The notes: a model not told the origin generated them from the sequence alone. Positions 1 to 18,147 are shown, counted from the stretch's first letter. The stretch: DNA of 64,000 nt from Sedimenticola sp. (GCA_027068795.1 JAMOMB010000189.1:4712-68711), one strand, 5' to 3'. A program made the numbers and translations.

Positions 1-593
1 CAGGCAAATATCACCATCTAGTCAAGAGATGCGAAGAGGAATCGACTGTTTCTTCATTGCCCACGGGAAATGGGGAATCACGATTTCCAAGGTTTTCTGC
101 AGCCCAGGATCAAAGACCAGGTAGGGAAGAGCCCCATATCGTGGTTCAGCCTGGTTCAATGCAGGGAATTGCTCGCACGAACCACCGATCATTGCAGTTC
201 TCTCGCCAAATTCAGTTCGTATCAGATCTCTTCAATATCGACCCCTTGTTGCTCCATGCCATCGCTCATGTAGAGTCCCGGTACAATCCGCAAGCGGTTT
301 CACCCGCTGGCGCAATTGGCCTGATGCAGGTCATGCCTGCAACGGCGCTTCGGTTTGGTCTGGAGAACCCTGAAACCCGGCTGTTCGATCCCATGGACAA
401 TTTGCTGGTCAGCTCGCTGTATCTGCGCGTACTTTATCGTCACTTTGGCAATGATCTGACGCTGATCCTGGCGGCCTACAATGCTGGGGAGAATGCTGTC
501 ATCCGGCACGGACGCAAGATGCCTCCCTATCGGGAAACGAGGGAATATGTACGCAAGGTTATGGACTACTATCTGCAATTGAGAAGCGCTTGA
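1..593 (+). CDS. T3SS-associated lytic transglycosylase (SLT domain), probably 5'-truncated by the window
   Basis: SLT motifs AIAHVES (catalytic Glu), GAIGLMQVMP, AAYNAGE, ETREYV; frame stays open upstream of the TTG at 57 to the window edge. Confidence 0.88.
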   Translation, partial: GKYHHLVKRCEEESTVSSLPTGNGESRFPRFSAAQDQRPGREEPHIVVQPGSMQGIARTNHRSLQFSRQIQFVSDLFNIDPLLLHAIAHVESRYNPQAVSPAGAIGLMQVMPATALRFGLENPETRLFDPMDNLLVSSLYLRVLYRHFGNDLTLILAAYNAGENAVIRHGRKMPPYRETREYVRKVMDYYLQLRSA

Positions 594-600
594 TCAAGCA

Positions 601-2568
601 ATGAATACGTCAGCCTACTCAGCTGTGGCCAACCCCCCCGCCGGGTTACTGGCGCGCTCCAGCGATTTAATACTTGCCCTTGGAGTGGTTGCTATCATTG
701 CTTTGATGGTGCTGCCACTGCCGCTGTTGATGCTGGATGCGCTGGTGGCCATAAGCATTGTCTTTGGCTTGGTGTTGGTGCTGATGTCCGTTTATGTCTC
801 TACGCCACTCCAGTTCTCGGTTTTTCCCAGCGTATTGTTACTGAGCACCCTCTATCGACTGGCGTTGTCGGTTGCCACTACGCGCATGATTTTGCTGCAT
901 GGGGATGCTGGCAATATCATCGACACCTTCGGCAATATGGTGGCGGGGGGTAATCTGGTGGTGGGTTTGGTGGTGTTTCTCATCATTACCCTGGTGCAGT
1001 TCATCGTAATTGCCAAAGGGGCAGAGCGGGTTGCAGAAGTGGCAGCGCGCTTTTCCCTGGATGCCATGCCCGGAAAGCAGCTTTCCATTGATTCGGATCT
1101 GCGTAGCGGCCTCATTGATAAGAATGAGGCAAAGCGCAAACGCCGGGAGATCGAGCTGGAAAGCAAGTTCAATGGCAGCATGGATGGCGCCATGAAGTTT
1201 GTCAAGGGAGATGCTATCGCAGGCATCGTCATCATTCTTATCAACTTGCTGGGTGGTCTTGCCATTGGGGTAATGCAGCTTGATATGGATATGAGCGATG
1301 CCATGGCGAAATATTCTATTCTCACCGTAGGGGATGGCATGGTGGCCCAGATTCCGGCATTGCTGGCAGCGATGTCTGCAGGCCTGATTGTCACCCGTGC
1401 AACAGATGAACAAAGCGACCGGCATCTCGGGGATTCTATACACAAGCAGCTGACTTCGATTCCCAGGGTGATCCTTATCACTGGTGGGATTTCCCTGTTG
1501 CTGGCTCTTGTGCCCGGGTTTCCCAGTGATGTGTTTGTTGTTCTGGGCATACTGTTTTTGATTTCCGGGGCTTTGCTGATACCTGCCTGGAAGAATCGGG
1601 TGCAGCGGGTTTCGCAGCCTGCTTTTGAGGTCGTGATGCGAAAAAAGGAGTTGGGCCAGCCCCGGCTGCAGGCAAGCCAGGTCCCAGAGGTATCGCCGGC
1701 AGCTCCCTTGCAGCTCGAATTGCCGCGCAATTGGGCTGGTGGTGGCCGGGAGGAAGAGCTGGCTCGGGAGTTGGAAGATGTGCTGCGTGATTTCAAGGTG
1801 GATCTTGGTGTGCAGCTGCCGAGAATCGACATCCGGTGGTATCGCGGTAGCCGTGATGGTTGGCAACTGCTTGCTTATGAGGTTCCCATTGTCAAAGGCC
1901 CGCCCGTGCAGGCGGAAATCGCAGAGCTGGCTGCCCAGATACATATTGCATTGCAACGTCACATCAATCTGTTCATGGGGCTGCAGGAGGCCAGTTTTCT
2001 GCTTTCCCAGGCTTCCACGGATAATCCCGATGTAGTCAAGGAGGTGCTGCGTGTGGTGCCGATGCAGCATATCGCGGCAATCCTGAGGAATCTTGTTGAG
2101 GAGCAGGTTCCAATTCGCAACTTGCGCCTGATTCTTGAGGCGCTGATTGAGGCCGGGCAACAGGAAAAGGATGTTCACAATCTGACTGAGTATGCGCGTA
2201 TTGCCTTGCGGCGCCAGATCAGCTATCGCGTTGCCCCAGATGGGTTGCTGCGAGCAGTGATTTTGGTGCCGGAGCTTGAAGACAAGCTATTGCAGGCGAT
2301 TCGGGTTGGTGGCGGCATGGCCCAGCTATCCCTTGATCCACAGGATGCAGAAAAGGTTATGGAAATGCTGGTGAATGCTGTCAGGGAGCATCAGCCGCAG
2401 GCTGTGGTGGTCTCGGTACAACTGCGGCGGCATATTCGTCGACTCATAGAGCGTGATTGTTTCTCTACGCCGGTGCTGTCACACAATGAACTTACCCCTG
2501 AAACGAAGCTGGAGGTGGTTTCCCGCGTGGGGCTGCCCGGCACCTATCAATTGACTGCAGCGGGGTAA
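601..2568 (+). CDS. sctV: T3SS major export gate protein SctV (FlhA/LcrD/HrcV family)
   Basis: FHIPEP signature RVAEVAARFSLDAMPGKQLSIDSDL; GSMDGAMKFVKGDAIAG; multi-TM N-terminal half. Confidence 0.96.
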   Translation: MNTSAYSAVANPPAGLLARSSDLILALGVVAIIALMVLPLPLLMLDALVAISIVFGLVLVLMSVYVSTPLQFSVFPSVLLLSTLYRLALSVATTRMILLHGDAGNIIDTFGNMVAGGNLVVGLVVFLIITLVQFIVIAKGAERVAEVAARFSLDAMPGKQLSIDSDLRSGLIDKNEAKRKRREIELESKFNGSMDGAMKFVKGDAIAGIVIILINLLGGLAIGVMQLDMDMSDAMAKYSILTVGDGMVAQIPALLAAMSAGLIVTRATDEQSDRHLGDSIHKQLTSIPRVILITGGISLLLALVPGFPSDVFVVLGILFLISGALLIPAWKNRVQRVSQPAFEVVMRKKELGQPRLQASQVPEVSPAAPLQLELPRNWAGGGREEELARELEDVLRDFKVDLGVQLPRIDIRWYRGSRDGWQLLAYEVPIVKGPPVQAEIAELAAQIHIALQRHINLFMGLQEASFLLSQASTDNPDVVKEVLRVVPMQHIAAILRNLVEEQVPIRNLRLILEALIEAGQQEKDVHNLTEYARIALRRQISYRVAPDGLLRAVILVPELEDKLLQAIRVGGGMAQLSLDPQDAEKVMEMLVNAVREHQPQAVVVSVQLRRHIRRLIERDCFSTPVLSHNELTPETKLEVVSRVGLPGTYQLTAAG

Positions 2569-2636
2569 GGCGGTGCACAGCAGGCCGAAGGCATACAGGA
2601 GTATATGGGCGCCACTGAATTGATTACAAAAAACTG

Positions 2637-4589
2637 ATGCGAGTCATGCATAAGGATATGAAAAAAAACAAGAACTCATTTTTTGCTATTGCCAAGCTGG
2701 CAGCAGGTTTGCTGCTGCTTGTTTCGCTGTCTGTACAAGCCGGGGATCCACCCAACTTTGATAAAAGCGTTAACCTGGTGGCGCGAGAACAGCCGCTTGC
2801 TTCCTTCCTGGGAGATCTTTTTGGGCAGATCGGGATGCCAACCATTGTGGATGCGCAGGTAGAAGGAAAGGTCAACGGTAATTTTACCGGCGTTGCAGTT
2901 CGCCAAGTCTTCAACGATATCGCCCGTTCCTTCGGATTGGTGATGTTCTATGATGGAGCAGTTGTCTTCATCTATACAGGCAAGGATGTGTCACGCCGTA
3001 TACTCGCGGTTCCCGACCACATCACCCGGCGGGTAATGAAGAATGCCACTGACCTGCGCCTCATCGATGAGCAGAATCGTTTGCGCGCCTCGCGTGATGG
3101 TGGTTTGGTGGTGACTGGCACCAAGCGTTTCCTGGAGCTGATAGAGGAAATGGTGTATGCCGCACAAAGTAACCTGCAGAGTTATGAACCCCCCTTCAGC
3201 TTTCGTGTATTTTACCTAAAGTATGCCTGGGCTCAGGATGTGGTGCTGCGCTTTGGCGGCCGCCAGGTGGTTGTGCCCGGTGTAGCCAGCACTCTGCGCC
3301 GACTGGTTAGCGATACATCGAGTGCGGCTGCCCACTCTGTTTACCGGGAAACCCTCATTTCACCGTCATTGCCTGGTATGCGGGGGCAGGGGCTGGCATC
3401 AATTGGCAAAGAAGGGCGGCTGGGTTTGCCTGATTCAAATGCGGAAGCAAGAAATGATGCGCGATCTTCTCCAGATACCCCCCATTCTGGAACGCCGGAC
3501 AGTTTTGGGCAGATCTATTACTCACAAAGCACCAAAAGCCAGGTGCGTATAGAAGCTGATCCACGCCTGAATGCGATTATTGTGCGCGATGCGCCCAACC
3601 GGATTTCCCGGTACAAGGAATTGATCAAGGCGCTGGATGTAGAGCCACAGATGCTGGAGATTGAAGCGACTATCATCGATATATATCAGGATCGGATGCT
3701 GGAGCTGGGGATAAACTGGCGCTGGATGAATGGTGATGATGAGGTGTTGTTTGGCACCGGTGACGGCTCAGATTTGTTGCTGCGCCCTGGTCGTCCCGTC
3801 ACGCCCATGGGGCGAGGGGGATTTGTCTCTTTTGTGCTGGGCGATAAAGCAAAATTCATAGGCCGAATCAATGCCCTTGAGGCGAAGGGTGCGGCGCGTA
3901 TCGTCACCAGTCCCCATGTGCTTACGTTGTCCAATGTGGAAGCGATCTTCGATACCAGTTCTACCTTCTTTGTGCGTGTGGAAGGCAACTATGAGGTGGA
4001 TCTGTACAACATTTCGGTAGGCACCTCGTTGCGGGTTACACCGCATGTATTCAAGGACGATGGTGAGACCAGAATCAAGTTGCTGATTACCGTCGAGGAC
4101 GGGAAACAACGAGACCAGACGGTGGATCGCATACCGGTAATTGAAACCTCCAGTATCAACACCCAGGCGTTGATTGGTTCGAAAGACAGCATTCTGATCG
4201 GGGGACTGGTAAGGGAGGTTAGCAGTGACTCCGAGGACAAAGTGCCGTTTGTGGGTGACTTGCCGTTGCTGGGTAATCTGTTCAAGACCAATAAACGCAG
4301 CGGAGAACGGGTTGAGCGCCTGTTCCTTATTTCCCCGAGATTGGTGCCAAGAAACCAACACTTGGCCAGCTATCCATCGGCGACGGATGCTGCCTTGGGT
4401 CGCTTCCGTTCCGGCGGCATGGAGAGGGAGGGGAAAACGCTGATAGACCGGCTTGAACAAAAGCAGATACGGGAATGGAGTAAAGCGCCGGTACCGCTGC
4501 CGGCAAAACAGCCCGAGGAAACGTACATGGAGGGGCGAGGAGCGGGAAAGAGTTTCCAGCATTGGGAACGGGAAAACATTGAACTGTAA
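2637..4589 (+). CDS. sctC: T3SS outer-membrane secretin SctC (start may be ATG 2658)
   Basis: Signal peptide; FYLKYAWAQD...VPGVASTL and IEADPRLNAIIVRD motifs; secretin C-terminal motif KVPFVGDLPLLGNLFK...ERLFLISPR. Confidence 0.95.
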   Translation: MRVMHKDMKKNKNSFFAIAKLAAGLLLLVSLSVQAGDPPNFDKSVNLVAREQPLASFLGDLFGQIGMPTIVDAQVEGKVNGNFTGVAVRQVFNDIARSFGLVMFYDGAVVFIYTGKDVSRRILAVPDHITRRVMKNATDLRLIDEQNRLRASRDGGLVVTGTKRFLELIEEMVYAAQSNLQSYEPPFSFRVFYLKYAWAQDVVLRFGGRQVVVPGVASTLRRLVSDTSSAAAHSVYRETLISPSLPGMRGQGLASIGKEGRLGLPDSNAEARNDARSSPDTPHSGTPDSFGQIYYSQSTKSQVRIEADPRLNAIIVRDAPNRISRYKELIKALDVEPQMLEIEATIIDIYQDRMLELGINWRWMNGDDEVLFGTGDGSDLLLRPGRPVTPMGRGGFVSFVLGDKAKFIGRINALEAKGAARIVTSPHVLTLSNVEAIFDTSSTFFVRVEGNYEVDLYNISVGTSLRVTPHVFKDDGETRIKLLITVEDGKQRDQTVDRIPVIETSSINTQALIGSKDSILIGGLVREVSSDSEDKVPFVGDLPLLGNLFKTNKRSGERVERLFLISPRLVPRNQHLASYPSATDAALGRFRSGGMEREGKTLIDRLEQKQIREWSKAPVPLPAKQPEETYMEGRGAGKSFQHWERENIEL

Positions 4590-4592
4590 ACA

Positions 4593-4657
4593 GCCTTTTT
4601 CTTTTGCGTGTACTTTTCTTGGTACGGAAAAAGCGCTGCTGCAAGGGCCGGAAAGGC
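4593..4657 (+). other. Intercistronic stem-loop between sctC and sctD
   Basis: GCCTTTTTCTTTTGC pairs with GCAAGGG(CC)GGAAAGGC; inner GTGT/GCGC and TTTTCT/GGAAAA stems; several G-U pairs. Confidence 0.6.
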
Positions 4658-4672
4658 GAACGGGAGCAAGCG

Positions 4673-5779
4673 ATGAATGATGCAAGATCACTGGAACTGG
4701 TCGTTGTCGAAGGAGAACAAGCTGGAGCAAGCACGGTGATCAGATCAGGTTGCAGGTTGACCGTGGGGGCCACCTTGGACAACGATGTCGTCTTGCGGGA
4801 TTCTGGTTTATCTGATACTCAAATTTTACTTGAGCTAAACCAGGATGTGCTAATTCTGTCCATTGCATCGGGAGAAGCTGATCTGGCTGGTGAAAGACTG
4901 GTTGCCGGTGATGTAACTCGAATGCCGCTCTATACCACGTTACATATTGGCAACAGCGTGATTGCCTGCGGTGAATCGGGCAGTGCTCATTGGGGGGAGC
5001 TCCTCGCCAAACTTCAATCTACAGATGAAAAACTGCCGGAAGTCGCTAGCGCCACTACGACTCCTGTTTCCCGGCAGCAGCCTGTTATGCAGCGTCACGG
5101 TGGCTTGTTCCTGTGGCTGTTCATTGGCTCTGCCCTATTGCTGGCTTTATTTGGTGGTGGTCGGGAAAAGGCCCCACGGATCGATATGGCGCAACAAGTC
5201 CAAATCTTGCGGGAACAGATTCAGCAATTGGGGTTTGCAGAGCTGAAGGTTCAAGTTGAAGAGGAGGCGGTGCTAGTGATTCGTGGTTACCTGAAAGAAA
5301 CAAGGCATTATGCCATGTTGGAAGCATTGCTGGAGAAGCATGAGGTGGCTGCTTCACTCGAGGTTCGGGTTGGTGAAAAACTGGCAGCTGAGGTAAAGGA
5401 TATCTATCGTGTACAGGGGATCAGCGCTGAAGTTGAAGCCTTGGGTTCAAAGCAAGTAAAGGTTATGACGCGGGAAGAGGATGTCGGGCATTTGCAGGAG
5501 GTCAGGGCGATTGCCATCAGGGATGCTGGACTTGAGGACATCGTGGCTTACAACGAACCGCCGGAAGCGCCGCCCGAAGCAGTAGTGGTGAAGAGGAAGC
5601 TGGATCCGGGAGAGGCGGTGACCATGGTCGTAGCTGGTGATCCCGCCTATGTAGTAACCACGGATCAGGCGCGGTATTTTATTGGTTCATTGCTGCCCAC
5701 CGGGCACAGGATAGCCGCCATTACGGGTGCTGCCGTTCTGCTGGAAAAAGAGGGTGCCTGGATCACTTTAAATTTTTGA
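4673..5779 (+). CDS. sctD: T3SS inner-membrane ring protein SctD
   Basis: N-terminal FHA-like region (LVVVEGEQAGA...VGATLDNDVVL), one TM, C-terminal AYVVTTDQARYFIGSLLPTGH as in YscD/HrcD; follows sctC. Confidence 0.88.
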   Translation: MNDARSLELVVVEGEQAGASTVIRSGCRLTVGATLDNDVVLRDSGLSDTQILLELNQDVLILSIASGEADLAGERLVAGDVTRMPLYTTLHIGNSVIACGESGSAHWGELLAKLQSTDEKLPEVASATTTPVSRQQPVMQRHGGLFLWLFIGSALLLALFGGGREKAPRIDMAQQVQILREQIQQLGFAELKVQVEEEAVLVIRGYLKETRHYAMLEALLEKHEVAASLEVRVGEKLAAEVKDIYRVQGISAEVEALGSKQVKVMTREEDVGHLQEVRAIAIRDAGLEDIVAYNEPPEAPPEAVVVKRKLDPGEAVTMVVAGDPAYVVTTDQARYFIGSLLPTGHRIAAITGAAVLLEKEGAWITLNF

Positions 5780-5894
5780 AACCGTAACGGTGAAAAACAC
5801 CTGGGACATGCCCAGGCAACAAGCAACCCCGGGTTTGCAAAACCCAAGCAGGTGTAATGCATTATTTCACTTCATATTGATAGAGGTAAGAACA

Positions 5895-6191
5895 ATGACG
5901 ACAACGAACATGAATGCCATTCTGGGTGCCAATGCTTCTGTTTCCGGTAGCGGAAAATCTTCTGATGCGAGTTGGTTTGAAGCCATGGCGGAAGCCTGGG
6001 GAAAGGCGCTGGACAAGCAGGCTGCGCGTATCGAGGAGATGTCCAATGCCATTGGAGATGGAGCGAGCTCCCCGGCTGATATAACCAAGCTGACTGCAGA
6101 ATCCCTGACCATGTCCTTTATGTCCAATAGTTCGCACACGGCCCTGACCAGTGCCGGGTCGGCGCTGGAAACCATGGCCAGAAAGCAATAG
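5895..6191 (+). CDS. Probable T3SS needle/pilus subunit (SctF-like), 98 aa
   Basis: RBS GAGGT; small Ala/Ser-rich helical hairpin with SSPAD turn; lies between sctD and sctI/sctJ. Confidence 0.6.
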   Translation: MTTTNMNAILGANASVSGSGKSSDASWFEAMAEAWGKALDKQAARIEEMSNAIGDGASSPADITKLTAESLTMSFMSNSSHTALTSAGSALETMARKQ

Positions 6192-6207
6192 GAGAGGGGA
6201 GTTTCTC

Positions 6208-6600
6208 ATGATAAACGATATGCTGCCCATGCAGGTGGCGTCGGTTGCCGCTACCCAGATGCAGCCCGCCCAGCAGGTAAACATGGGGTATGGTGCATCG
6301 CTTTCGGATATTTCTTCGTTTCAGCAAAGCCTGGATCGTGCCAGTCAAGCGAGCAAGGTACAGGCTTCAAATGAAGCCGTAACGGCTGTATTGAAACCAC
6401 TGGGTTTTATCAATACCGAGGCCGCAGAGTTGCTTGACTATGCCAAATCAGCGGTTGCGAGTGGAAAAGAACTTACCCCCAGTGAGATTGTGCTGCTGAC
6501 AGCACGCAGTCATGAGTTCATGTTCCACGCCCAGTTGACAGCAAATGTGGCCAATCGTACCGCTGAAGGGTTGCAGCAATTGTTCCGGCAGCAGAATTAG
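6208..6600 (+). CDS. sctI: T3SS inner rod protein SctI (YscI/HrpB-like)
   Basis: C-terminal TPSEIVLL...QLTANVANRTAEGLQQLFRQQ resembles the inner-rod motif; immediately upstream of sctJ. Confidence 0.72.
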   Translation: MINDMLPMQVASVAATQMQPAQQVNMGYGASLSDISSFQQSLDRASQASKVQASNEAVTAVLKPLGFINTEAAELLDYAKSAVASGKELTPSEIVLLTARSHEFMFHAQLTANVANRTAEGLQQLFRQQN

Positions 6601-6609
6601 GATACGCCG

Positions 6610-7359
6610 ATGAAACAGGCAATCTGTATGGTGCTGGTGCTGTTGTTGCTGACAGGCTGCAATAGCGAAACCCTCTATTCCCAGCTTTCGGAGCAGGAAG
6701 CCAACGAGATGGTGGCGCTACTGTACAACGCGGGTATTGAAGCCCGAAAAATCTCTTCAAAAGACGATACTTTTGCAGTATCCACGGTGCGGGATCATTT
6801 TTCCCGTGCTGTGGAGCTGTTACGGAGTAACGGTTATCCACGCAACCGCTTTGTCAGTTTGGGTGAGGTATTCAAGAAGGAAGGCTTTGTTTCCTCACCT
6901 CTCGAGGAACGGGCGAGGCTCAACTATGCGCAGTCGCAGGAGTTGACCAAAACCATTGAAAGCATCGACGGGGTGATTCTGGCGCGAGTGCATTTGGCTG
7001 TGCCCGAGGCGGATCCACTCAGCGAGAAGGTTCAGCCATCCTCGGCGTCTGTATTTATCAAGTACAGACGTGGAATGGACTTTTCCAAACATGTGGGGCA
7101 AATCAAGGCAATGGTGGTCAATAGTGTTGAAGGTTTGCCCTATGACAATGTCACTGTAGCGCTGTTTCCTGCTGCGCCCATGCCGGCGAGAAAGCCAGTT
7201 GCTTCCCCGCCGGTCAAGCCATTGGATCTGGAAGCTGTACCTATCCCGGCTGTTGCCTTGGGGGGCGTTACAGCCATGCTGGGTGGGCTGGGGACCTGGC
7301 TGTTCCTGCGCCGACGCAAAGATGCCGGCAGCCTGCCGATGGAGCATAGAGGGGAGTGA
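6610..7359 (+). CDS. sctJ: T3SS inner-membrane ring lipoprotein SctJ
   Basis: Lipobox LTGC; LYSQLSEQEANEM, SSPLEERAR, IDGVILARVHL, SSASVFIKY; C-terminal TM followed by RRRK. Confidence 0.96.
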   Translation: MKQAICMVLVLLLLTGCNSETLYSQLSEQEANEMVALLYNAGIEARKISSKDDTFAVSTVRDHFSRAVELLRSNGYPRNRFVSLGEVFKKEGFVSSPLEERARLNYAQSQELTKTIESIDGVILARVHLAVPEADPLSEKVQPSSASVFIKYRRGMDFSKHVGQIKAMVVNSVEGLPYDNVTVALFPAAPMPARKPVASPPVKPLDLEAVPIPAVALGGVTAMLGGLGTWLFLRRRKDAGSLPMEHRGE

Positions 7360-10339: not shown

Positions 10340-11094
10340 ATCATGTGGATCGAATTGTGGAAGCTACCATCATGACCAAGACAGAGTTGATGACAAGAAT
10401 GCCGGCAACTGGAAGAGAATTGCCATATCGCTCTGTTGATCCCTTGGAGGCTACTGACCTCTTTGATCGAAGTCTTCGTCGATTGATGGAAGAGAAAGCG
10501 TTTCCACTAGAAGCAGAGCAGGGTGAAGCACCGCTGGCATTCAACCAAAGCGAAACAGCCACTAGGCCACCGCAACAGCTTGTACCCGGTGGAACTGCTG
10601 GGAAATCACCGGCCGGGAGTAGAGAAATGCCTGCATCATGCATGAATGCTTGCGGTTTCGACCAGCAATCTATACTGCCAAATGCTGGCGCCCCTGGAAG
10701 CAGGGAAAGAGAGGAGGCTGCTCCTTCTTCTTTGTCTGGCGCTTCTGCTGCGGGCGCCATGGCCGGAATGAATGCAGGTAGCCATATGCCAGCGGTTAGC
10801 AGTACGGTGGCGGCTTCCGGCTATCAGGATTTTTCCCATGTGCTGCGACAACAGGCAGGGGATGCAGAAACCGGCGGCACCAAAGAATGGCACTTCTCGT
10901 TTTTGGATTCCCGTATGCCTTTGAGTCAGCTCAACTTGACAGGTCTGCAGGGTGGTGGCTGGGCGTTGTCCCTAGCCTCCGGAAATCTTGATCGGGAAGC
11001 GCTGGTCCGGCGTCTAGATGAATTACAAGTCAAGCTGGCCAGACTCAACAAGAATATTGAAGGCGTGGAAATTGTTAGGGAGCGTTCCCGGTGA
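10336..11094 (+). CDS. Putative needle-length ruler (SctP/FliK-like)
   Basis: Low-complexity Pro/Ala/Ser middle region and compact C-terminal beta-beta-beta-alpha segment ending RRLDELQVKL; follows sctO. Confidence 0.5.
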   Translation: MNHVDRIVEATIMTKTELMTRMPATGRELPYRSVDPLEATDLFDRSLRRLMEEKAFPLEAEQGEAPLAFNQSETATRPPQQLVPGGTAGKSPAGSREMPASCMNACGFDQQSILPNAGAPGSREREEAAPSSLSGASAAGAMAGMNAGSHMPAVSSTVAASGYQDFSHVLRQQAGDAETGGTKEWHFSFLDSRMPLSQLNLTGLQGGGWALSLASGNLDREALVRRLDELQVKLARLNKNIEGVEIVRERSR

Positions 11095-11831
11095 CCGATG
11101 GTAGCCCCTATCCGGAGCCCTGGCTGCATTCCCGCAGGCTGCGGCTGCGCGAGTTTGTCTGGAACGACAGTTACAACTTGGTGCAGATGCACCGGGAACC
11201 CAGGGTGCGGGAGCTGCTGGTGGATGATGAGCCGCTGGACAGGATTGAAACAGCACTTGCCTTTATCCGTTTTGTACAGAATGTTTACGAAAAACACCCG
11301 GGTTTGGGCATCTGGGTGGCCGAGCAAATGCGAGCAGCTTTGAGCGACAAAGACCTGCAGCGCCCTGATGTACGTGAGGCGCTGTCTGACGAAGCCCTGA
11401 GAAGAGCGGCGGTTTTGCGCCCCAGATTTTCCGGCTGGTTCAATCTGATGCCCATGAGCAATCAGCCACGGGAGGTGGAACTTGGCAGCCGCCTCAAGCC
11501 TGAAGTATGGGGCTCGGGGATTGCCATGGAAGGCGGTGAAATGCTGCTAAATCATGCTTTCGAGACGCTGGAGCGGGAACGGGTCTATGCAGTGAGCCAT
11601 GTTGATCACCGTTCGGCTCGTTTTGTGGTTGCCGCCCTGGGTTTTTCTGAACTGGGCATCCGGGACTATTGTGGCATGCCGGCACTCCACTATTGTCTGG
11701 AGAAAGAGCACTGGTTTTCCTGGCGCAGTTTGTCTCGCAGGGAACGTATGCGGCATGCTTTCACCAGGTATAAATCCGCAGATTCAACTCGATTAACGAA
11801 AAGGCTGCATGCACGGGGGGGCAAGCTGTGA
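11091..11831 (+). CDS. GNAT N-acetyltransferase, RimJ/RimL type
   Basis: SRRLRLREF N-terminus; VELGSRLKPEVWGSGIAMEG acetyl-CoA motif; HAFETL...SARFVVAALGF. Confidence 0.85.
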   Translation: MTDGSPYPEPWLHSRRLRLREFVWNDSYNLVQMHREPRVRELLVDDEPLDRIETALAFIRFVQNVYEKHPGLGIWVAEQMRAALSDKDLQRPDVREALSDEALRRAAVLRPRFSGWFNLMPMSNQPREVELGSRLKPEVWGSGIAMEGGEMLLNHAFETLERERVYAVSHVDHRSARFVVAALGFSELGIRDYCGMPALHYCLEKEHWFSWRSLSRRERMRHAFTRYKSADSTRLTKRLHARGGKL

Positions 11832-12676
11832 CTGCCGTGGCTGGCATACCTATGTTGGTGATGACGCATCTGTCTCATGGGCATGATGAGCGAATGAGTC
11901 AGTTATTGCAAAGCAATCAACTTGCCGGTATGGATGGACGGCGGGTACAGGGTGAAAGTGTGCAGCCTGTTTCCACCTTGGGAGCCAGTGCATTACATGC
12001 AACCCAGATTGCTGGAAGTAGCCTGGCAGGCGTGACCCCTGGCTTGCATAGGCTGCCAATGGAGCAGGGGTCTTTGCAGGCGGCTTCTGTGCGTTCTGGA
12101 ACCGGATTATTCGATGAAACTTCCAGACGCCTGTCAGAACGGCGGCGACAAGACAAGGAAGCGGGCGCTGATACAGGTTCTGGCCAGGAACAGAAAATGA
12201 TATCCCGGATGGAGTTTGAGGCCTGCCGAACCATCATCCAGGTGGCGCTGATGATTCAGCGGCAAGGGATGTTCAGTAACTTTCTGATCGTCAATCTTTA
12301 CCAGGACAAGCAGCATACTTGTGCATCTGCGAGTGAAGATCTTCGGCAAATGGTTGTGGTGGCTGGTCTGGATGAACCGGGGCGACAGGTTCCGGTGCAT
12401 GCGACCTTGGTTTGGCTGGATGTATCTGGCAAGCCACTTGCGCGCAGGCTGCCCGGCCAGTTGGTGTGGGGACGGTGCAATTTTGCTGCGGACTGGGTGG
12501 CTATGCATCTGGAGCAGGAAGCAGAAACAGGCATCTGGCGACTGCATGGCCAAGGGTTTCGGGATCGGCTGGCTGGTGTTGCGCTGGCAACGGGTGATAT
12601 CCCTGCTTTTGCTGGAAGCTGGGCCGATGTGAGCCTGCATATGCCTGGCGCAGCCCGCTACTGGGTGGGTTTGTGA
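11828..12676 (+). CDS. Hypothetical protein within the T3SS operon
   Basis: 282-aa ORF with GTGA overlaps on both sides; disordered-looking N-half, Trp-rich C-half. Confidence 0.65.
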   Translation: MTAVAGIPMLVMTHLSHGHDERMSQLLQSNQLAGMDGRRVQGESVQPVSTLGASALHATQIAGSSLAGVTPGLHRLPMEQGSLQAASVRSGTGLFDETSRRLSERRRQDKEAGADTGSGQEQKMISRMEFEACRTIIQVALMIQRQGMFSNFLIVNLYQDKQHTCASASEDLRQMVVVAGLDEPGRQVPVHATLVWLDVSGKPLARRLPGQLVWGRCNFAADWVAMHLEQEAETGIWRLHGQGFRDRLAGVALATGDIPAFAGSWADVSLHMPGAARYWVGL

Positions 12677-13785
12677 TGCCATTGGTTTCCTTGCCATCTT
12701 CCGGGAGTGGTGAAAACGTCTCGTTACAACAGATCGGAGCTGCATTGGCAGCTTTCGGTGAGCACCTGGTTATCCTGGACGCTGCCAGTGAAGAAATGAT
12801 CTGGTGCTCCCAGGGGTTTATAGAGAGTTTTCCGGCTTTGGGGAGGCAATCGACTCTGGCGGATTTTATTGCTGTCTTTGATGGATTGCAGCAGTGCCGT
12901 GTTTGTATTGAAACAGGGCAGAAGCAGATGCACACCGTCAGTGTTCGCCAGCAACAGGGTGGCGAAGGTCGTTTTGAGGCCACTATGGTTCTCCTGGAAA
13001 AAGAATTTCTTGCACTGAAGCTGGAAGATATATCCAGGCGTACTAGTGCAATACAGCGATATCTGGAGGATCGTGAACAACTTTTTTCTACTTCCAGAAC
13101 CATATCGGTCAGCGAAATGGCCACTACTCTGGCCCATGAGATCAATCAGCCCATAGGTACGGTTACCAGTTTGCTATGTGGTATTCGCTTGCGGCTTGAA
13201 AATGGAGAAAATGCCCAGCCGGAAATCGTCGCAGCCATTGACCAGGCAGTTGACCAAACACGCTTCGCTGCCAATATCATCGCCAGGATACGGGACTATA
13301 CGCACTCCCGCAAACCCGTCAATCAGACTCTGGAATTGGTGGAACTCGTTTGTTCCTGCGCTTCGTTGCTGGACTGGGAACTCGTTAGGGAAAATATCGA
13401 TTTGCAACTGGATCTGGGGAATGATTTGCTGATGGTTTCGGCCGATGAAACCATGTTGCAGCAAGTGTTCGTCAATCTCTTGCGCAATGCAATTGAGGCA
13501 ATGCGTGGGACTGACCCTGCCTCCCGTCAGCTTCGTATTGTCTTGCGCAAGAATGATGCAGAGGAGGAAGTAGAAATCGCCATTGCAGATAACGGTGTCG
13601 GCCTGACAGCTGATGCAAAAAACCAACTTTTTGTCCCCTTCGTCTCAAGTAAGCCTACAGGCATGGGAGTGGGTTTGAATATCTGCCGATCATTCGTTGA
13701 GCTCCATCAGGGAAGACTCTGGCTCTCTTCAAATGAGGCGGGGGGCTGTACCTCACATGTGTTGCTGCCCCTGCTTGGAAATTAG
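12673..13785 (+). CDS. Soluble sensor histidine kinase (FixL-like transmitter; possible degenerate PAS)
   Basis: H-box EMATTLAHEINQP, N-box QVFVNLLRNAIEAM, DNGVG, FVPFVSSK, GMGVGL; no TM segment. Confidence 0.93.
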   Translation: MMPLVSLPSSGSGENVSLQQIGAALAAFGEHLVILDAASEEMIWCSQGFIESFPALGRQSTLADFIAVFDGLQQCRVCIETGQKQMHTVSVRQQQGGEGRFEATMVLLEKEFLALKLEDISRRTSAIQRYLEDREQLFSTSRTISVSEMATTLAHEINQPIGTVTSLLCGIRLRLENGENAQPEIVAAIDQAVDQTRFAANIIARIRDYTHSRKPVNQTLELVELVCSCASLLDWELVRENIDLQLDLGNDLLMVSADETMLQQVFVNLLRNAIEAMRGTDPASRQLRIVLRKNDAEEEVEIAIADNGVGLTADAKNQLFVPFVSSKPTGMGVGLNICRSFVELHQGRLWLSSNEAGGCTSHVLLPLLGN

Positions 13786-13796
13786 GAGGAAGCATA

Positions 13797-14414
13797 ATGC
13801 AGAGAACTGTTTATCTGATCGATGACAATGCGGATTTCCGGCAATCTACCGCTTGGTGGCTGGAAGGTGCCGGCTATGTGGTGCAAAGCTTTGGGAAACC
13901 CTCTCAGGCAATGCGATATCTCACCAGCAATGCAGTAGCAGAGCATAGTTGCCTGTTGTTAGATGTGCGTATGCCGGAGATGTCGGGGCTGGATCTGCAT
14001 GATCAACTGAATCGCTCCGGATTGCGTCTTCCGGTGATCTACATGACCGGGCATGGAGATGTACCCCTCGCAGTGGAGGCGATGAGCAAAGGAGCCTTGA
14101 CTTTTCTGGAAAAACCTCTGGAAGATGAGGCGCTTATGTCAGCTCTGGAGGCGGCTTTTGTGGTGGATGCAAACCAGCATGCCGAGGACAGGGAAGGTGA
14201 GGCTTGTTATCTGGAGCGATTTGCGCTTCTGACGCCCAGAGAACGTGAGGTGTTGCAGGGCATTGTGGACGGGAAACTCAATAAGATCATTGCTTATGAT
14301 CTTGGCATCAGTGTAAAGACTGTGGAATTACACCGTTCCCGGGTAATGAAAAAAATGCAGGCGGGATGCCCCGCAGCGTTGGTGAGAATGGTGCTTACCC
14401 GGCGAGTAGCCTGA
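13797..14414 (+). CDS. FixJ/TtrR-type response regulator (REC + LuxR HTH)
   Basis: IDDN, LLLDVRMPEMSG, TGHGD, FLEKP; LTPREREVL...NKIIAYDLGISVKTVELHR; RBS AGGAG. Confidence 0.94.
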   Translation: MQRTVYLIDDNADFRQSTAWWLEGAGYVVQSFGKPSQAMRYLTSNAVAEHSCLLLDVRMPEMSGLDLHDQLNRSGLRLPVIYMTGHGDVPLAVEAMSKGALTFLEKPLEDEALMSALEAAFVVDANQHAEDREGEACYLERFALLTPREREVLQGIVDGKLNKIIAYDLGISVKTVELHRSRVMKKMQAGCPAALVRMVLTRRVA

Positions 14415-14438
14415 CATGCATTTTTATGGAAATAGCTT

Positions 14439-15362
14439 ATGACAACAGATGCCTTACGCCAGGTAATGGATAGCTCGTCTGAGGCAAGAGGTAAATGGCA
14501 GGCGAATGCCGCGGCCTTGGGAATATCAGCCACTGTAGAAGATGCCGGCTTTCTGCATTGGTATCGAGCCAAGACGCCGCTGGGGAAGATTTTTGTCGCC
14601 CTTTATCCATCGAAACGACTTTCTTCCGCAGTACGAACATTGGCTAGGAACGAGCATTTACTGGATGCGGCTGTTTCCCTTGGGCGAGAAGAGGAACTGC
14701 TGGAAATGATTGAGGAATGGATAAATTGTCCTCTAGATTTGGAGCCTGTCACAACACCTTCCAAGATCCCCGCCCATGTCGTTATTGCACCGCAGGATAG
14801 TAATGTTGATGGTGGAGAACGTGGTGTGTTGTTGGTGCTTTCTCCTGCTCTGTTGCATTGTTTGTCTCCCCCATCTGCAGCGTTGGAGGCATCCTGTACA
14901 TTGTTTTGGGGAACATTGGAATGCATGTTGATACTGGATCATTTTTCTGTCCCCAAGCAGCAGTTGCTTGCATTGGAAGCCGGTAGCATTGTGCTGATGC
15001 CAGCTTCTTTCGAAGCCCGCTGGCGCTGTACCGCCAAGCCTTGCATGGAATCCGCACCGGAATGGCCTCTATTTTTGGATATGGGCGAAACCTGTCTCAA
15101 GTTTTTTTCCGCAACAGAAGAAGCTAGGGTGGTAGATAAAACCAATATGCTGGAAATACGTTGCCTGGAACCCTGCGCTATTCCTGTAAACCAGCTGTTG
15201 GGCTGGTCGGATATGCCACGTTTTATGCTGTCGCAATCAATTTCCAGCAGTGTTATTGAGGTGAAGGGGGAAGGCAGAATTGCCCAGGGCAGTTTGTTGC
15301 CAGTTGCCCGTGGGTATGGTGTCTACATTGAAAAAATTGAAGGCACAGCGCAATGGACCTGA
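14439..15362 (+). CDS. sctQ: Divergent T3SS sorting platform protein SctQ
   Basis: Precedes sctR; SpoA-like segments LLALEAGSIVL and RIAQGSLLPVARGYGVYIEKI. Confidence 0.6.
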   Translation: MTTDALRQVMDSSSEARGKWQANAAALGISATVEDAGFLHWYRAKTPLGKIFVALYPSKRLSSAVRTLARNEHLLDAAVSLGREEELLEMIEEWINCPLDLEPVTTPSKIPAHVVIAPQDSNVDGGERGVLLVLSPALLHCLSPPSAALEASCTLFWGTLECMLILDHFSVPKQQLLALEAGSIVLMPASFEARWRCTAKPCMESAPEWPLFLDMGETCLKFFSATEEARVVDKTNMLEIRCLEPCAIPVNQLLGWSDMPRFMLSQSISSSVIEVKGEGRIAQGSLLPVARGYGVYIEKIEGTAQWT

Positions 15363-16006
15363 CCCAGTTTTCCCCATCTTCAGCTCTAATAACCGTCATA
15401 CTGTTGGCATTGGCTCCATTTGTGGCGGTAATGGTCACCTCCTTTACCAAGATTGTGGTGGTGCTCAGTCTGTTGCGAAATGCGCTGGGCCTGCAGCAGG
15501 TTCCTCCAAACTTGGTGATCAACGGGCTGGCGCTGGTGCTTTCCATATATGTTATGTACCCAGTGGGGCAGGAAATGCTTGACCGTACTGCCGGGATGGA
15601 AGACATTGGCAAGGATGCCAATACCATGCTGGAAGCAGCAAACAATGCCAAAGAGCCGTTGAGAGAGTTCCTAGTGGATCATGTATCGCCACGGGAACAG
15701 GGCTTTTTCCTCAAAACCATACGCAAGATGCTGCCAGAGGACAAATCGGCGGAAGTGGGGTCCGAAGACTTTGTGGTGCTTGTGCCCGCTTTTACCATCA
15801 GCGAGCTGACGGCAGCTTTCGAAATAGGGTTTCTGATTTTTTTGCCATTTATTGTTATTGATTTGGTGATTGCCAATATTCTTATGGCCATGGGTATGAT
15901 GATGTTGTCCCCAACCGTCATTTCGTTGCCGTTCAAGCTACTGTTATTTGTACTTGTCGATGGTTGGGTAAAATTGACCCATGGGTTGGTACTTTCCTAT
16001 TTGTGA
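15353..16006 (+). CDS. sctR: T3SS export apparatus SctR
   Basis: VMVTSFTKIVVVLSLLRNALGLQQVPPN; MGMMMLSP M-gasket; PFKLLLFVLVDGW. Confidence 0.97.
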   Translation: MDLTQFSPSSALITVILLALAPFVAVMVTSFTKIVVVLSLLRNALGLQQVPPNLVINGLALVLSIYVMYPVGQEMLDRTAGMEDIGKDANTMLEAANNAKEPLREFLVDHVSPREQGFFLKTIRKMLPEDKSAEVGSEDFVVLVPAFTISELTAAFEIGFLIFLPFIVIDLVIANILMAMGMMMLSPTVISLPFKLLLFVLVDGWVKLTHGLVLSYL

Positions 16007-16016
16007 GAGATTGCGC

Positions 16017-16289
16017 ATGTATGATTCTGAAGTTATTCAGCTTACCCAGCAGGCATTGTGGCTAATACTGGTTCTCGCCGGACCGCCAGTGGTGGCCGCA
16101 GCCCTGGTGGGCTTGCTCATTGCATTCATCCAGGCAGCAACACAGCTTCAAGAGCAAACCTTTCAGTATGCGGCAAAATTCTTTGCTATCGTGTTTACCA
16201 TCTTTATTACCTCCTCACTATTGGGCAGTTCGATCTACAATTTCGCAAATCGCCTATTGAGTGATTTTCCGACCTTGGTGCATCATTAG
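16017..16289 (+). CDS. sctS: T3SS export apparatus SctS
   Basis: VGLLIAFIQAATQLQEQTF FliQ/YscS motif; 90 aa. Confidence 0.95.
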   Translation: MYDSEVIQLTQQALWLILVLAGPPVVAAALVGLLIAFIQAATQLQEQTFQYAAKFFAIVFTIFITSSLLGSSIYNFANRLLSDFPTLVHH

Positions 16290-16316
16290 GCCTATTTTAC
16301 CGTGATGTTTAAAAAA

Positions 16317-16379
16317 CAAGATGTTTTTGTTACGTTGTATGTATTTTGCATCAAGTGCAATGTAACGGCAGGCATCTTG
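16317..16379 (+). other. Long intercistronic RNA hairpin between sctS and sctT
   Basis: 16317-16339 pairs with 16356-16379: 23 bp (17 Watson-Crick, 6 G-U) with a single-nucleotide bulge. Confidence 0.7.
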
Positions 16380-16407
16380 CTGGGGGCGGTTCTTGTCTGT
16401 TGTTAGC

Positions 16408-17211
16408 ATGGGATCGCTCCAGGCGGGCGATATTTTTTCCCTGTTTTCCAACCAAGCCGTAACAGTAGCATTGGCCACTACACGTATCGCCGTTGCCTTT
16501 CAGATTTTGCCTATTTTTTCCAATGAATTGGTGCCCGCGTTGGTACGAAATGCAATCTTTGTGGCTTTGGCGTTGGTCACGATGATAGTACACCCTGTGT
16601 TGACAATTGATAGCCTGGGCGCGCAGGGCTGGCTACTGCTTTTTGCCAAGGAAATATTGATCGGCATTGCCATTGGTGTGTATTTTGGTATTTTTCTTTG
16701 GGCATTTGAAGCGGCAGGAATGGTGGCTGACACACAAATTGGTACTTCCGTAGCACAAGTGCTAGATCCCCTTTCCGGACACCAGACATCCTTGCTTGGA
16801 CTCTTTCTCGGGCGGCTAGCCAATTACATATTCATGATTGCAGGTGGATTGATGTTGCTTACCGGGGTGACCATGGAAACCTATCAGATTTGGCCAATAC
16901 ACCAAGTGTTGCCGGATTTTTCCCGGGCGGGTGTGGTCTTGTTCGAGTCTGAGTTTTCCTACTTTTTTCAACTATTGGTGCTGATTGCTTCACCGATTGT
17001 GGTGGTGGTGTTCTTGATTGATGTGGTGATGGGATTGGTCAATCGCTATGCGCAGCAATTCAATGTGTTTTTTATTTCCATGTCATTGAAAATGCTGGCT
17101 GCGATTGCAGTATTGATGCTTACCATGGGGTCACTCATTGATTTGCTGATCTCAGAGCTGCACGGGCACTCCGGCGCCTTACTGGATAGATTGCGCAGTT
17201 TGCTGGGCTGA
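16408..17211 (+). CDS. sctT: T3SS export apparatus SctT
   Basis: LFAKEILIGIAIG, AGMVADTQIG, GLVNRYAQQFNVFFISMSLK. Confidence 0.95.
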   Translation: MGSLQAGDIFSLFSNQAVTVALATTRIAVAFQILPIFSNELVPALVRNAIFVALALVTMIVHPVLTIDSLGAQGWLLLFAKEILIGIAIGVYFGIFLWAFEAAGMVADTQIGTSVAQVLDPLSGHQTSLLGLFLGRLANYIFMIAGGLMLLTGVTMETYQIWPIHQVLPDFSRAGVVLFESEFSYFFQLLVLIASPIVVVVFLIDVVMGLVNRYAQQFNVFFISMSLKMLAAIAVLMLTMGSLIDLLISELHGHSGALLDRLRSLLG

Positions 17212-17236
17212 GGTACAGCAGGGAAAGCACGAACTT

Positions 17237-17893
17237 TCAGCGTCGGGAAAATGAAGGTTGCAGGTTGGCTAGGCGAGATAGGCCATCATCCTGCAGGGCA
17301 TTGAGGTAGCTGTTGATAACTGTTTCGGTAGATGCATTTTTTTCCCATGTTGTCACCAGCGCTTCCATCGCCAGCCGGGTGCGTCTGGAAAGAGAGCCGC
17401 TCAGGGGGTCCTGAATATCAGCAAGCAATTTAATGCAGTAAAGGGATCTGGCTTCTTCATTGGTGGCGATCAGGTTCAGGATGCAGGAAGCCGCCTTTTG
17501 GAAGGAGGATTGGGTCAACGGGCTTCTTCCCGTGGGCTGAGCATACCAGGAGCAGAGGTATTCAAGTGGCCCAAGGCTCCGAGTCTGGCCAAAAGCACTG
17601 TTGCTACTGAGGGTGCCTGCGCCCCAGGCTGAAAGTTTTCCTGACGGTAGTCTGCCAGATACCAGGGCATGAACAAGTGTTCCGGTTATGAGTTGTTTGG
17701 CACGTTCATCGCCATTGTCGCCAATTTGACAGAGAATCTGTAAAAAAGCCGGGTACAGATTATCTCCAAGGTGTTTGCAAACCCGCTCCATCAAACGGAT
17801 CCTTTCTTCTGAAGAGGGCAGTGCAGAGCAGCCGCTCACCAGCGTTTGGGCGGCAGCATGCCAATCGGGCTGTTGCTTCAGCATCAGAGCCAT
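17237..17893 (-). CDS. Hypothetical helical protein, T3SS-linked
   Basis: 218-aa ORF converging on sctT; protein-like composition; no family recognised. Confidence 0.7.
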   Translation of the reverse strand: MALMLKQQPDWHAAAQTLVSGCSALPSSEERIRLMERVCKHLGDNLYPAFLQILCQIGDNGDERAKQLITGTLVHALVSGRLPSGKLSAWGAGTLSSNSAFGQTRSLGPLEYLCSWYAQPTGRSPLTQSSFQKAASCILNLIATNEEARSLYCIKLLADIQDPLSGSLSRRTRLAMEALVTTWEKNASTETVINSYLNALQDDGLSRLANLQPSFSRR

Positions 17894-17922
17894 GAATTCT
17901 CTTTGTCAGCATGTAAAGCTGT

Positions 17923-18147
17923 TCAGTTTCCCGGTAAATCGCAAATATGGGATACAACTTGCTGGGCGATTTGATCCACTGGGGTGCCAGCATCAAAACC
18001 AGGCGTCGCGGTTACCATATGGCTGCCGCCGGCGAGTACAGGAGAAAACCATTCCGCAGCATCAAATTCTGTGGGTTGCTCCGCGCTTGCATTATTCAGT
18101 GCGGAGTTGTTCAGTGACGAAGATCCAATACCGTTAATGGGATTCAT
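17923..18147 (-). CDS. Small hypothetical protein, candidate T3SS substrate
   Basis: RBS GGAGA; Ser/Asn-rich N-terminus MNPINGIGSSSLNNSALNNAS. Confidence 0.65.
   Translation of the reverse strand: MNPINGIGSSSLNNSALNNASAEQPTEFDAAEWFSPVLAGGSHMVTATPGFDAGTPVDQIAQQVVSHICDLPGN

Follow-up and report, generated by a model that had tools for sequence, protein, structure and literature searches.

The window analysed here, a stretch of 64,000 nucleotides from a Sedimenticola sp. assembly (GCA_027068795.1, JAMOMB010000189.1:4712-68711, contig C189 below), opens within a T3SS (type III secretion system) gene cluster of about 20 kb. On the plus strand the genes follow the order slt-V-C-D-F-I-J-K-L-N-O-P-GNAT-hyp-HK-RR-Q-R-S-T, with every named gene intact and Q-R-S-T contiguous with the rest of the operon. 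The features are listed below in window coordinates, except for two genes to the left of the window, given in contig coordinates.

C189:881-2386: lipase gene (PF01764, GHSLGG), directly after the fliO-like gene
C189:2766-3926, minus: sctU (over the NCBIfam cut-off), divergent; the window begins at C189:4712, 786 bp to its right
1..593, plus: lytic transglycosylase, SLT (PF01464, E 1e-27); ORF start at C189:4591, 121 bp left of the window
601..2568, plus: SctV export gate, 655 aa (TIGR01399, 692.9 bits against a cut-off of 692.25, a narrow pass; FlhA model 540)
2637..4589, plus: SctC secretin (TIGR02516, 385.9 against 238.45; PF21304 N0 domain)
4604..5779, plus: SctD inner-membrane ring (TIGR02500, 93.8 against 86; PF23893, PF16697)
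5895..6191, plus: predicted needle subunit (SctF-like), 98 aa, ending in ARKQ; after sctD, hairpin fold
6208..6600, plus: predicted inner rod (SctI-like), 130 aa; before sctJ, needle-family profile E 1e-5
6610..7359, plus: SctJ lipoprotein ring (TIGR02544, 227.9 against 161.95)
7356..7919, plus: SctK-like, by position only; no library match
7916..8584, plus: SctL stator (PF06635, T3SS_SCTL, 45.1 against 23.3; below the TIGR02499 cut-off)
8560..9894, plus: SctN ATPase (TIGR02546, 568, below 605 yet the best model, above the TIGR01026 cut-off; PF18269)
9887..10339, plus: SctO-like stalk, by position only; no library match; homologue in 27 of 41 loci
10336..11094, plus: SctP-like ruler, by position only; no library match; weak matches in loci L180 and L223
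11091..11831, plus: GNAT acetyltransferase (PF13302, E 3e-16); homologue in 13 of 41 loci, place varying
11828..12676, plus: 282-aa hypothetical protein, no Pfam match; homologue in 7 of 41 loci
12673..13785, plus: FixL-like histidine kinase (NF041777 best, E 1e-48, below the equivalog cut-off); 29 of 41 loci
13797..14414, plus: FixJ/LuxR-type response regulator (NF006900, E 9e-64, below the equivalog cut-off; PF00072 and PF00196); 30 of 41 loci
14439..15362, plus: divergent SctQ-like protein, by position before sctR; no Pfam or NCBIfam match
15353..16006, plus: SctR (TIGR01102, 262.5 against 208.6)
15981..16289, plus: SctS (TIGR01403, 86.1 against 76.5)
16393..17211, plus: SctT (TIGR01401, 187.8 against 163.05)
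17237..17893, minus: conserved 218-aa protein; homologues 37-58% identical in 14 of 41 loci
17923..18147, minus: small ORF; 28-39% matches in the Thiodiazotropha-genus loci of genomes G942, G961 and G962
18360..19235, minus: phosphoribulokinase (prk), the first host gene and right edge of the island (NF011997/PRK15453, 473 against 362)

NCBIfam cut-offs were exceeded by SctV, SctC, SctD, SctJ, SctR, SctS, SctT and SctU, so that the export apparatus SctRSTUV passes the Sct models in all five components, with the flagellar models scoring lower, while the secretin and the SctD and SctJ rings are all present according to NCBIfam and Pfam models. A flagellar remnant is ruled out by the secretin, by the winning Sct models and by the separate flagellar export cluster of the same genome on contig C25. 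As to the less conserved components, a profile of 14 orthologues of the SctQ-like protein matches only the SPOA domain of SpaO (4tt9), and weakly (E 0.018); relatives hold ORFs 26-48% identical at the SctK-like position, and a homologue of the SLT occurs in 23 of 41 loci. The 218-aa protein has neither a Pfam nor a PDB match, and its candidacy as a gatekeeper is thus unsupported. An earlier note on this DNA had described an intact sct set with a secretin, ending beside prk in an apparent Calvin-cycle autotroph. The gene set was confirmed at the positions listed, and the autotrophy agrees with the score of prk above the PRK15453 cut-off and with two RuBisCO large-subunit matches in the genome (contigs C170 and C94).

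The 98-aa ORF after sctD is predicted, from weak and generic matches, to be a needle-like hairpin. Its AF2 model is a helix-turn-helix (pLDDT 82); 25% of the members of its top Atlas cluster (0.96) carry PF09392, and members of the needle family match PF09392 below the cut-off (E 0.0009-0.05). In the fold search T3SS rod and needle chains ranked second and fourth (Z 9.1 and 8.9) amid generic hairpins, which does not discriminate, and the needle profile gave only chance matches to PDB sequences. The SctI-like ORF is a paralogue of the needle-like ORF and has no library match. A longer paralogue (203 aa, C72:415-1026) carries a needle-like C-terminal hairpin behind a glycine-rich hydrophobic N-terminus; such long paralogues occur in 20 of 40 related loci, with a variable N-terminal domain made of glycine-rich helices, RTX or DUF1521. 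Fold searches with the needle and the long paralogue returned generic helical hairpins, with no tip or translocon structure among the matches listed, an outcome that carries no weight against either.

The 4.7 kb to the left of the window contain sctU, the FliO-like ORF that comes after it, the lipase gene and an ankyrin gene. Of the components that the earlier note had missed in the window, sctU was found just outside it and a regulator within the cluster (the FixL/FixJ-like pair), while the absence of a standard translocon held for these 4.7 kb as well. Neither SctE (PF04888) nor SctW (PF07201) was matched in the carrier genomes G000 (that of the window), G924, G749, G841 and G042; the Ysc control G970 was positive for both, and only these two profiles had a positive control. 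As for chaperones, TIGR02552 gave only generic TPR matches below the cut-off, and PF05932 matched nowhere, controls included. The G000 assembly, in which no T6SS sheath gene was found, is 84% complete, so that a T6SS, a T4SS or a divergent translocon may be unassembled, and divergent forms of SctE and SctW may exist in the carriers. What the genes predict is a secretin-capped needle without a standard translocon or gatekeeper.

The cluster is likely to be a horizontally acquired island: none of 19 same-genus genomes gave anything better than a match at the level of FlhA (43-51%, spanning half the protein), and in all three same-genus relatives checked prk lies next, or nearly next, to dxs. Relatives carry variable inserts between prk and dxs. 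The GC content is 53% and 49% in the island against 59-60% in the flanks, and changes from 53% left of prk to 60% right of it. The family is patchy, since the needle profile matched in none of 399 class-wide genomes besides that of the window (one genome being unscored) and the rod profile in none of the 301 genomes of the family of G041. PLSDB holds no intact member (no needle match, one isolated Cupriavidus fragment for the rod, and best SctV matches of 41-42%), and no family member was found on viral contigs. No overlap was found joining C189 to C72. Contig C150, with further ankyrin genes, joins C27 (PspF-like) and not C72, which leaves the position of the ankyrin array and the continuity of C189 with C72 unfixed.

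The same layout was found again in Candidatus Thiodiazotropha, in Granulosicoccaceae, in Comamonadaceae-type genomes and in metagenomes. In a FastTree phylogeny of 1,894 columns of V, N, R, T and U the carriers form a clade (SH 1.0; with 17 taxa, recovered in 87 of 87 bootstraps), separate from the Ysc, SPI-1, SPI-2, Hrp1, Hrp2, Rhc, Myxococcales, Desulfovibrio and BCI representatives, with one to five references per type and the Chlamydia and Bordetella types left out. SctV is 48-68% identical within the clade and 35-42% identical to the references over the full length, and the loci nearest to the window are those of the Thiodiazotropha genus. The earlier suspicion of a little-studied environmental lineage fits this separate clade, since none of the characterised families compared encloses its core proteins. 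Judged by sequence, this is a widespread T3SS lineage apart from the named families compared. The Ysc, SPI-1, SPI-2, Hrp1, Hrp2, Rhc-I/II and Desulfovibrio types share with it the export apparatus, the ATPase complex, the rings and the secretin, but the present family differs from them in gene order, in lacking a SctE or SctW match and in having FliO and an in-cluster FixLJ-like pair.

The BCI type resembles the cluster in its backbone (V..C-D-two small ORFs-J..N), its SLT and its lack of annotated translocators (PMC8565462; PMC12580581). However, membership is ruled out: BCI grouped alone with the present family in none of 87 bootstraps and with Hrp2 in 86, its SctV and SctC are 37 and 29% identical to those of the family, its sctS follows V and its T-U follow N, its sctQ-sctR are split off by a LysM gene of more than 10 kb (a giant ORF in L260) where Q-R-S-T are contiguous here, and the needle and rod profiles do not match in it. 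The Myxococcus T3SS* is FliO-bearing and tied to the killing of bacterial prey (PMC12248157; PMC12075869), but in these accounts it is needleless and works with a Tad pilus, in contrast to the secretin, rod and needle-like genes found here; the Archangium representative L032 branches away from the clade.

It is quite possible, without being probable, that the cluster belongs to a type already published, such as Paraburkholderia PSI or 'Mad', the Lysobacter cluster, the 'sct-type' of Xanthomonas sp. 60/Stenotrophomonas or a category of the global T3SS survey of 2017 cited in PMC8565462. Such an identity is favoured by the needle family being present in Dyella, Rhodanobacter, Dokdonella, Luteimonas and Pseudoxanthomonas, and by the kinase-regulator pair among Lysobacter sct genes, a cluster with no known effectors (PMC13163355; PMC4657364, as excerpted). 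FliO-bearing non-flagellar T3SS operons were likewise already noted in Chromatiales, Granulosicoccales, Burkholderiales and Xanthomonadales (PMC12248157), orders that match the carriers found here and among whose operons the present lineage is very likely included; the mention there is a passing one in a flagellar study, whose passages covered here are silent on gene order and phylogeny as well as on needle, cargo and function. Against a published identity, Lysobacter clusters reportedly lack the secretin (PMC4657364; compared by description only), which is present here as SctC, and Lysobacter, Xanthomonas and Stenotrophomonas are absent from the named matches among the 120 listed. PSI is described as 12-14 kb long, without sctO and with no close relative outside Burkholderia sensu lato (PMC8565462, in part), while the present cluster of about 20 kb has an SctO-like ORF. 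No definition of this layout as a family was found in the passages of these papers that the search covered. The lineage thus appears to have been glimpsed in print (in the FliO survey and in Thiodiazotropha) without a description as a family in the portions of the literature covered.

Turning to possible cargo, the lipase has no hydrophobic N-terminus, and 70% of its first 30 residues are S, T, G, A or P; its N-terminal domain is found in 7 proteins only, with no Atlas and no family match. The adjacent ORF combines ankyrin repeats with an N-terminal hydrophobic segment, and two more ankyrin paralogues (83-85%), arranged in tandem and bearing a lipobox-like signal, lie on C150. The pattern of a toxin gene followed by an exported immunity-type gene with tandem paralogues is therefore present, the place of the C150 paralogues not being fixed, and the lipase and the ankyrin protein are a predicted toxin-antidote pair. 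There are precedents both for ankyrin immunity proteins and for PF01764/PF11187 lipases as antibacterial effectors (PMC8285248; PMC6536674, as excerpted). As here, the lipase pairs of T6SS and of the Xanthomonadales T4SS consist of a PF01764/PF11187 lipase and a following exported protein with tandem paralogues, but the present pair lies inside a T3SS island in a genome where no T6SS sheath was found.

Related loci carry other toxin-type genes: a nuclease (PF13930) with YezG-like immunity in L172, lysozyme, LysM and CHAP followed by a signal-peptide ORF in L166, LysM-CHAP between fliO and sctU in L246, LysM-SLT in L171, and, in L168, a lipoprotein-like ORF after a protein that shares the N-terminal domain of the lipase. 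LysM, lysozyme, CHAP, nuclease-YezG or lipase-type cargo was counted in 5 of 36 family loci against 1 of 65 other T3SS loci, a comparison in which the queries were drawn from the family, the five loci are likely kin and locus lengths differ. Low-complexity N-termini rich in S, T, G, A and P (67-70%) occur in 3 of 6 candidate cargo proteins. No such cargo was found in 31 of the 36 loci, including all those of the Thiodiazotropha genus, which carry an RTX-repeat protein instead. The second part of the island encodes an RTX-M91 (NleD-family) metallopeptidase; the lipase catalytic domain, the ankyrin repeats and M91 were found in no other family locus, and the first two may for this reason be passengers.

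Considering all this, we tentatively favour, with confidence somewhat short of even, a translocon-less injectisome aimed at bacteria. Flagellar FliO aids the assembly of FliP, and the FliO-like protein could by analogy aid that of SctR. The FixL/FixJ-like pair would switch on the divergent sctU and slt-sctV operons, the SLT would clear peptidoglycan, and the 98-aa hairpin would polymerise as a needle on the 130-aa rod. The long paralogue might dock on the needle via its C-terminal hairpin, display its variable N-terminal domain and replace both tip and translocon. Signal-less cargo (the lipase here; lysozyme, CHAP, LysM and nuclease in relatives) would be released at the envelope of a bacterium in contact, or delivered into it, the exported ankyrin proteins being the predicted self-immunity against the lipase. 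The broader proposition, that the whole family gave up the eukaryote-directed tip, translocon and gatekeeper in favour of a modular long paralogue of the needle, through which polymorphic toxins (lipases, peptidoglycan hydrolases and nucleases, each having an immunity gene to match) reach rival bacteria, is a doubtful one. The antibacterial reading has no explanation for how the needle crosses a bacterial envelope. Of the roles suggested earlier, translocon-free secretion fits, whereas symbiosis and anti-grazer defence fare worse, since the toxin-immunity-type cargo, which the earlier note had missed, points more to bacterial targets, yet both may still apply.

It is unlikely, to a similar degree as that broader proposition, that the same family is directed at eukaryotes, be they animal or algal hosts, grazing protists or fungi, with the long paralogue as a non-standard pore and the RTX-M91 peptidase or the lipase acting on host cells. 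In favour of this view, eukaryotes are the targets of nearly all needle-bearing T3SS characterised so far, and M91 is known from eukaryote-directed effectors, although an RTX-M91 protein could also leave by a type I route. The M91 gene of the island and the glycine-rich hydrophobic N-terminus of the long paralogue would fit it, as would the nearest systems being in lucinid symbionts (Ca. Thiodiazotropha), where EscV and SctS were reported in some MAGs and a role in symbiosis was suggested (PMC12278820, in part); BCI, too, has no annotated translocators and aids rice colonisation (PMC8565462, in part). However, bacteria are the only targets for which immunity paralogues that are exported or lipoproteins, YezG, and the lysozyme and CHAP domains would make sense, M91 was found in no other family locus, and the needle gene is present in only 5 of 41 Thiodiazotropha-genus genomes, so that this symbiosis can do without it.

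A system that only secretes proteins into the medium, or forms an adhesive surface filament whose long subunits display RTX or other domains, with the toxin-immunity genes as unrelated passengers at an insertion hot spot, is improbable: the fusion of long paralogues to RTX or DUF1521, the translocon, gatekeeper and chaperone not found, cargo that most loci lack and no two share, and the variable prk-dxs inserts would agree with it, but several lineages have signal-less enzymes inside the cluster or at its edge (between fliO and sctU in L246), and half of the six candidates have the S/T/G/A/P-rich N-termini.

Needle-bearing T3SS are understood as devices that inject eukaryotic cells. If the broader antibacterial proposition is true, one such system would also serve as an interbacterial weapon, its carriers ranging from Comamonadaceae of soil and freshwater to chemoautotrophs of the sea. 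A large, conserved lineage with a secretin and a needle, its own two-component regulator and a flagellar-type FliO, and no recognisable translocon or gatekeeper would in any case be a missing branch in the classification and evolution of the T3SS, and the T3SS genes reported from lucinid symbionts gain an identity. Cultured carriers include Piscinibacter gummiphilus, Granulosicoccus antarcticus and Dyella and Luteimonas species, which make bacterial killing by an injectisome and the replacement of the translocon directly testable. At 90% clustering the lineage comprises 1,819 needle-like proteins.

In the window (C189:4712-68711 of genome G000), a single plus-strand run of genes (1-17211), every one intact, contains all the sct genes that the earlier note had named and ends, as it had said, next to prk. 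SctV, C, D, J, R, S and T exceed the NCBIfam cut-offs (SctV by a tiny margin), and SctN and SctL those of broader models; the K-, O- and P-like genes are assigned by position alone, and the Q-like gene by position and a weak SpaO match in the profile search. The four extra genes before Q proved to encode a GNAT protein, an unknown protein and a FixL-like/FixJ-like kinase-regulator pair, a regulator inside the cluster where the earlier note had seen none of the AraC/HrpL kind. The upstream DNA, where sctU, sctW and sctB/E were to be sought, yielded sctU; no translocon, tip or gatekeeper gene was found in the part of contig C189 left of the window, whose minus-strand genes lie at C189:3-3926 (locus L001). 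The flagellar export genes of this Sedimenticola genome (G000) are separate, on C25.

C189:2766-3926, minus strand: sctU (TIGR01404, 376 vs 358)
Left of the window, minus strand: FliO-like ORF, 97 aa (PF04347 above cut-off)
Left of the window, minus strand: signal-less lipase, 501 aa (GHSLGG; N-terminus without hydrophobic stretch)
Left of the window, cut by the contig end, minus strand: exported ankyrin-repeat ORF (hydrophobic segment at N-terminus)
Window 1-17211, plus strand: slt, sctV, C, D, 98-aa ORF, 130-aa ORF, J, K-like, L, N, O-like, P-like, GNAT, unknown, kinase, regulator, Q-like, R, S, T
Window 17237-17893, minus strand: conserved 218-aa protein (hyp218)
Window 18360-19235: prk, following the T3SS cluster

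Hyp218 is 37-58% identical across the family to which this cluster belongs and has no match in Pfam or PDB; it is a candidate family-specific component.

The cluster is real and represents an injectisome family that is either not yet described or no more than glimpsed in print. Among the matches listed (80 loci kept), the closest SctV proteins are those of Ca. Thiodiazotropha (65%) and Granulosicoccaceae (57-60%), whose clusters have the same gene order as the window. The family marker, the 98-aa needle-like ORF, is represented by 1,819 proteins at 90% clustering (237 at 50%), occurs on 113 metagenome stretches and in 7/201 genomes of the family of genome G044, and gives strong matches in 5/41 genomes of the genus of G042; carriers by source name include Dyella, Rhodanobacter, Dokdonella, Luteimonas, Pseudoxanthomonas, Acidovorax, Piscinibacter and Ottowia. 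A census of 41 loci, many incomplete and most located via the needle-like gene itself, gave needle-like 41, sctD 41, sctU 34, fliO-like 31, regulator 30, kinase 29, SLT 23, hyp218 14 and GNAT 13. The D-F-I-J..N order is invariant, and R-S-T and U shift in some loci. One Granulosicoccaceae genome (G043) carries three system copies (L004, L008, L100), with sctC displaced in L008 and not seen within the DNA fetched for L100. The kinase-regulator pair is absent within the fetched 20 kb of the Acidovorax-type loci L221, L222, L227-L229 and L231; in G749, of the same clade, it lies ~10 kb past sctN. No second T3SS gene occurs within 20 kb of a lone rod-gene fragment on a Cupriavidus megaplasmid (L093:20001-20111), which is likely a remnant.

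The system very probably belongs to a coherent lineage distinct from the references compared, in keeping with the little-studied lineage proposed earlier. In the concatenated V+N+R+T+U tree of 57 units, all 27 family units group (SH 1.0) apart from all reference types, the window system being sister to those of the Thiodiazotropha genus, and the clade is kept in 87/87 bootstraps (17 taxa). Its sister group varies among these bootstraps: the family joins Rhizobacter L013 in 41, and a larger group of L013, BCI and Hrp2 in 58. The L013 system (order J-N-R-S-T-U-V) stands near the family with weak support and fits none of the types we could name. No defining paper was found in the portions of the literature available to us, which list seven standard classes (PMC13436205), define BCI and PSI (PMC8565462, PMC12580581), record that part of the Thiodiazotropha MAGs have EscV and SctS (PMC12278820) and describe secretin-less Lysobacter clusters that contain a kinase-regulator pair (PMC13163355, PMC4657364) and a 'sct-type' cluster in Xanthomonas sp. 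60 (PMC11032200). Among these types, direct sequence comparison covered BCI, which differs; that the family is the same as one of the PSI, Mad, Lysobacter or sct-type systems is less likely but plausible.

The 98-aa protein is modeled as a two-helix hairpin after a disordered N-terminus; Atlas leads to PF09392, and the second and fourth places of the fold search, amid many generic hairpins, go to a Shigella rod and a T3SS needle. The 130-aa ORF is its paralogue. A third, longer paralogue (200-450 aa) occurs near 20/40 related clusters (two flagged rows, needle ORFs with early starts, having been removed); it shares the C-terminal hairpin, has an N-terminus that varies and is fused to RTX repeats in one case. 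None was seen next to the clusters of the Thiodiazotropha genus. The structure model of this long paralogue is confident and its fold search gives nothing specific. We infer that it may cap the needle. The SctE and SctW profiles (PF04888, PF07201) match none of five carrier genomes (G000, G924, G749, G841, G042), the Ysc control being positive. DUF6683 genes recurrently follow the long paralogue in Comamonadaceae-type L163, L167, L168, L170 and L172, with TolB-like proteins in some; by BLAST, DUF6683 occurs in 5/36 family loci vs 0/65 others.

We tentatively favor a machine that would be controlled by its own FixL-like/FixJ-like pair, form a needle with the assistance of the FliO-like protein and deliver antibacterial enzymes upon contact; such bacterial targeting by an injectisome would be unusual, and it is testable. 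The window-adjacent lipase and ankyrin ORF are a predicted toxin-immunity pair. In related loci, a nuclease is accompanied by a YezG-like immunity gene, and a protein combining lysozyme, LysM and CHAP domains precedes an ORF with a signal peptide. Another locus encodes a LysM-CHAP protein between fliO and sctU, a further one a LysM-SLT protein, and yet another a protein that has the N-terminal domain of the lipase and precedes a lipoprotein-like ORF. Such cargo occurs in 5/36 family loci (probably kin) vs 1/65 other T3SS loci, a comparison biased towards the family, from which the queries were taken; the same queries found none in 31 family loci. RTX proteins are carried by five loci. Ankyrin immunity and such lipases are known from T6SS and T4SS (PMC8285248, PMC6536674); a search of the G000 assembly (2.29 Mb, 84% complete) gave no T6SS sheath gene. 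In G924 (L165:7827-11411) the GNAT gene and the long paralogue are separated from the T3SS by an IcmF/TssM gene of T6SS type. Injection into eukaryotes via a non-standard pore is a less probable reading, to which two observations lend weight: the closest relatives are symbionts of bivalves, and a peptidase domain of the NleD family is present. That the system serves secretion or adhesion alone, with toxins as passengers, we consider improbable.

The T3SS cluster is likely an acquired island, with a putative C189-C72 arrangement suggested by gene neighborhoods. In 19 same-genus genomes SctV found nothing above an FlhA-level match (17 at 43-51% over about half of the protein, two without match). 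In each of the three relatives fetched, prk and dxs point towards each other across 0.1-1.7 kb; in G000 dxs sits on C72, preceded by 6 kb of 49% GC. Family genes thus stand on both sides of the former prk-dxs junction. The start of C189 resembles C150, which joins a PspF-like contig, not C72.

C72:415-5966 (L135), beside dxs, low GC: 203-aa needle-ORF paralogue, TolB-like propeller protein, 211-aa exported protein, RTX + M91 peptidase (NleD-family)
C150:2-1559: tandem pair of ankyrin genes bearing a lipobox-like signal, paralogous to the C189 ankyrin ORF (83-85% identity)

The end of C150 overlaps C27, which presumably encodes the PspF-like activator. At window 56000-64000, where pilus assembly genes and an ATP-grasp/aldehyde dehydrogenase/EamA group lie, GC drops to 51-52%; this is possibly a further acquired stretch.

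As to the host, prk and two RuBisCO large-subunit genes away from the window (C170, C94) make carbon fixation via the Calvin cycle likely, as the earlier note had held. The active-site motifs of the two RuBisCO genes differ (KDDE and KNDE), and we take them to be form I and II. A second prk-like gene, 50% identical, lies at C187:808-1767.
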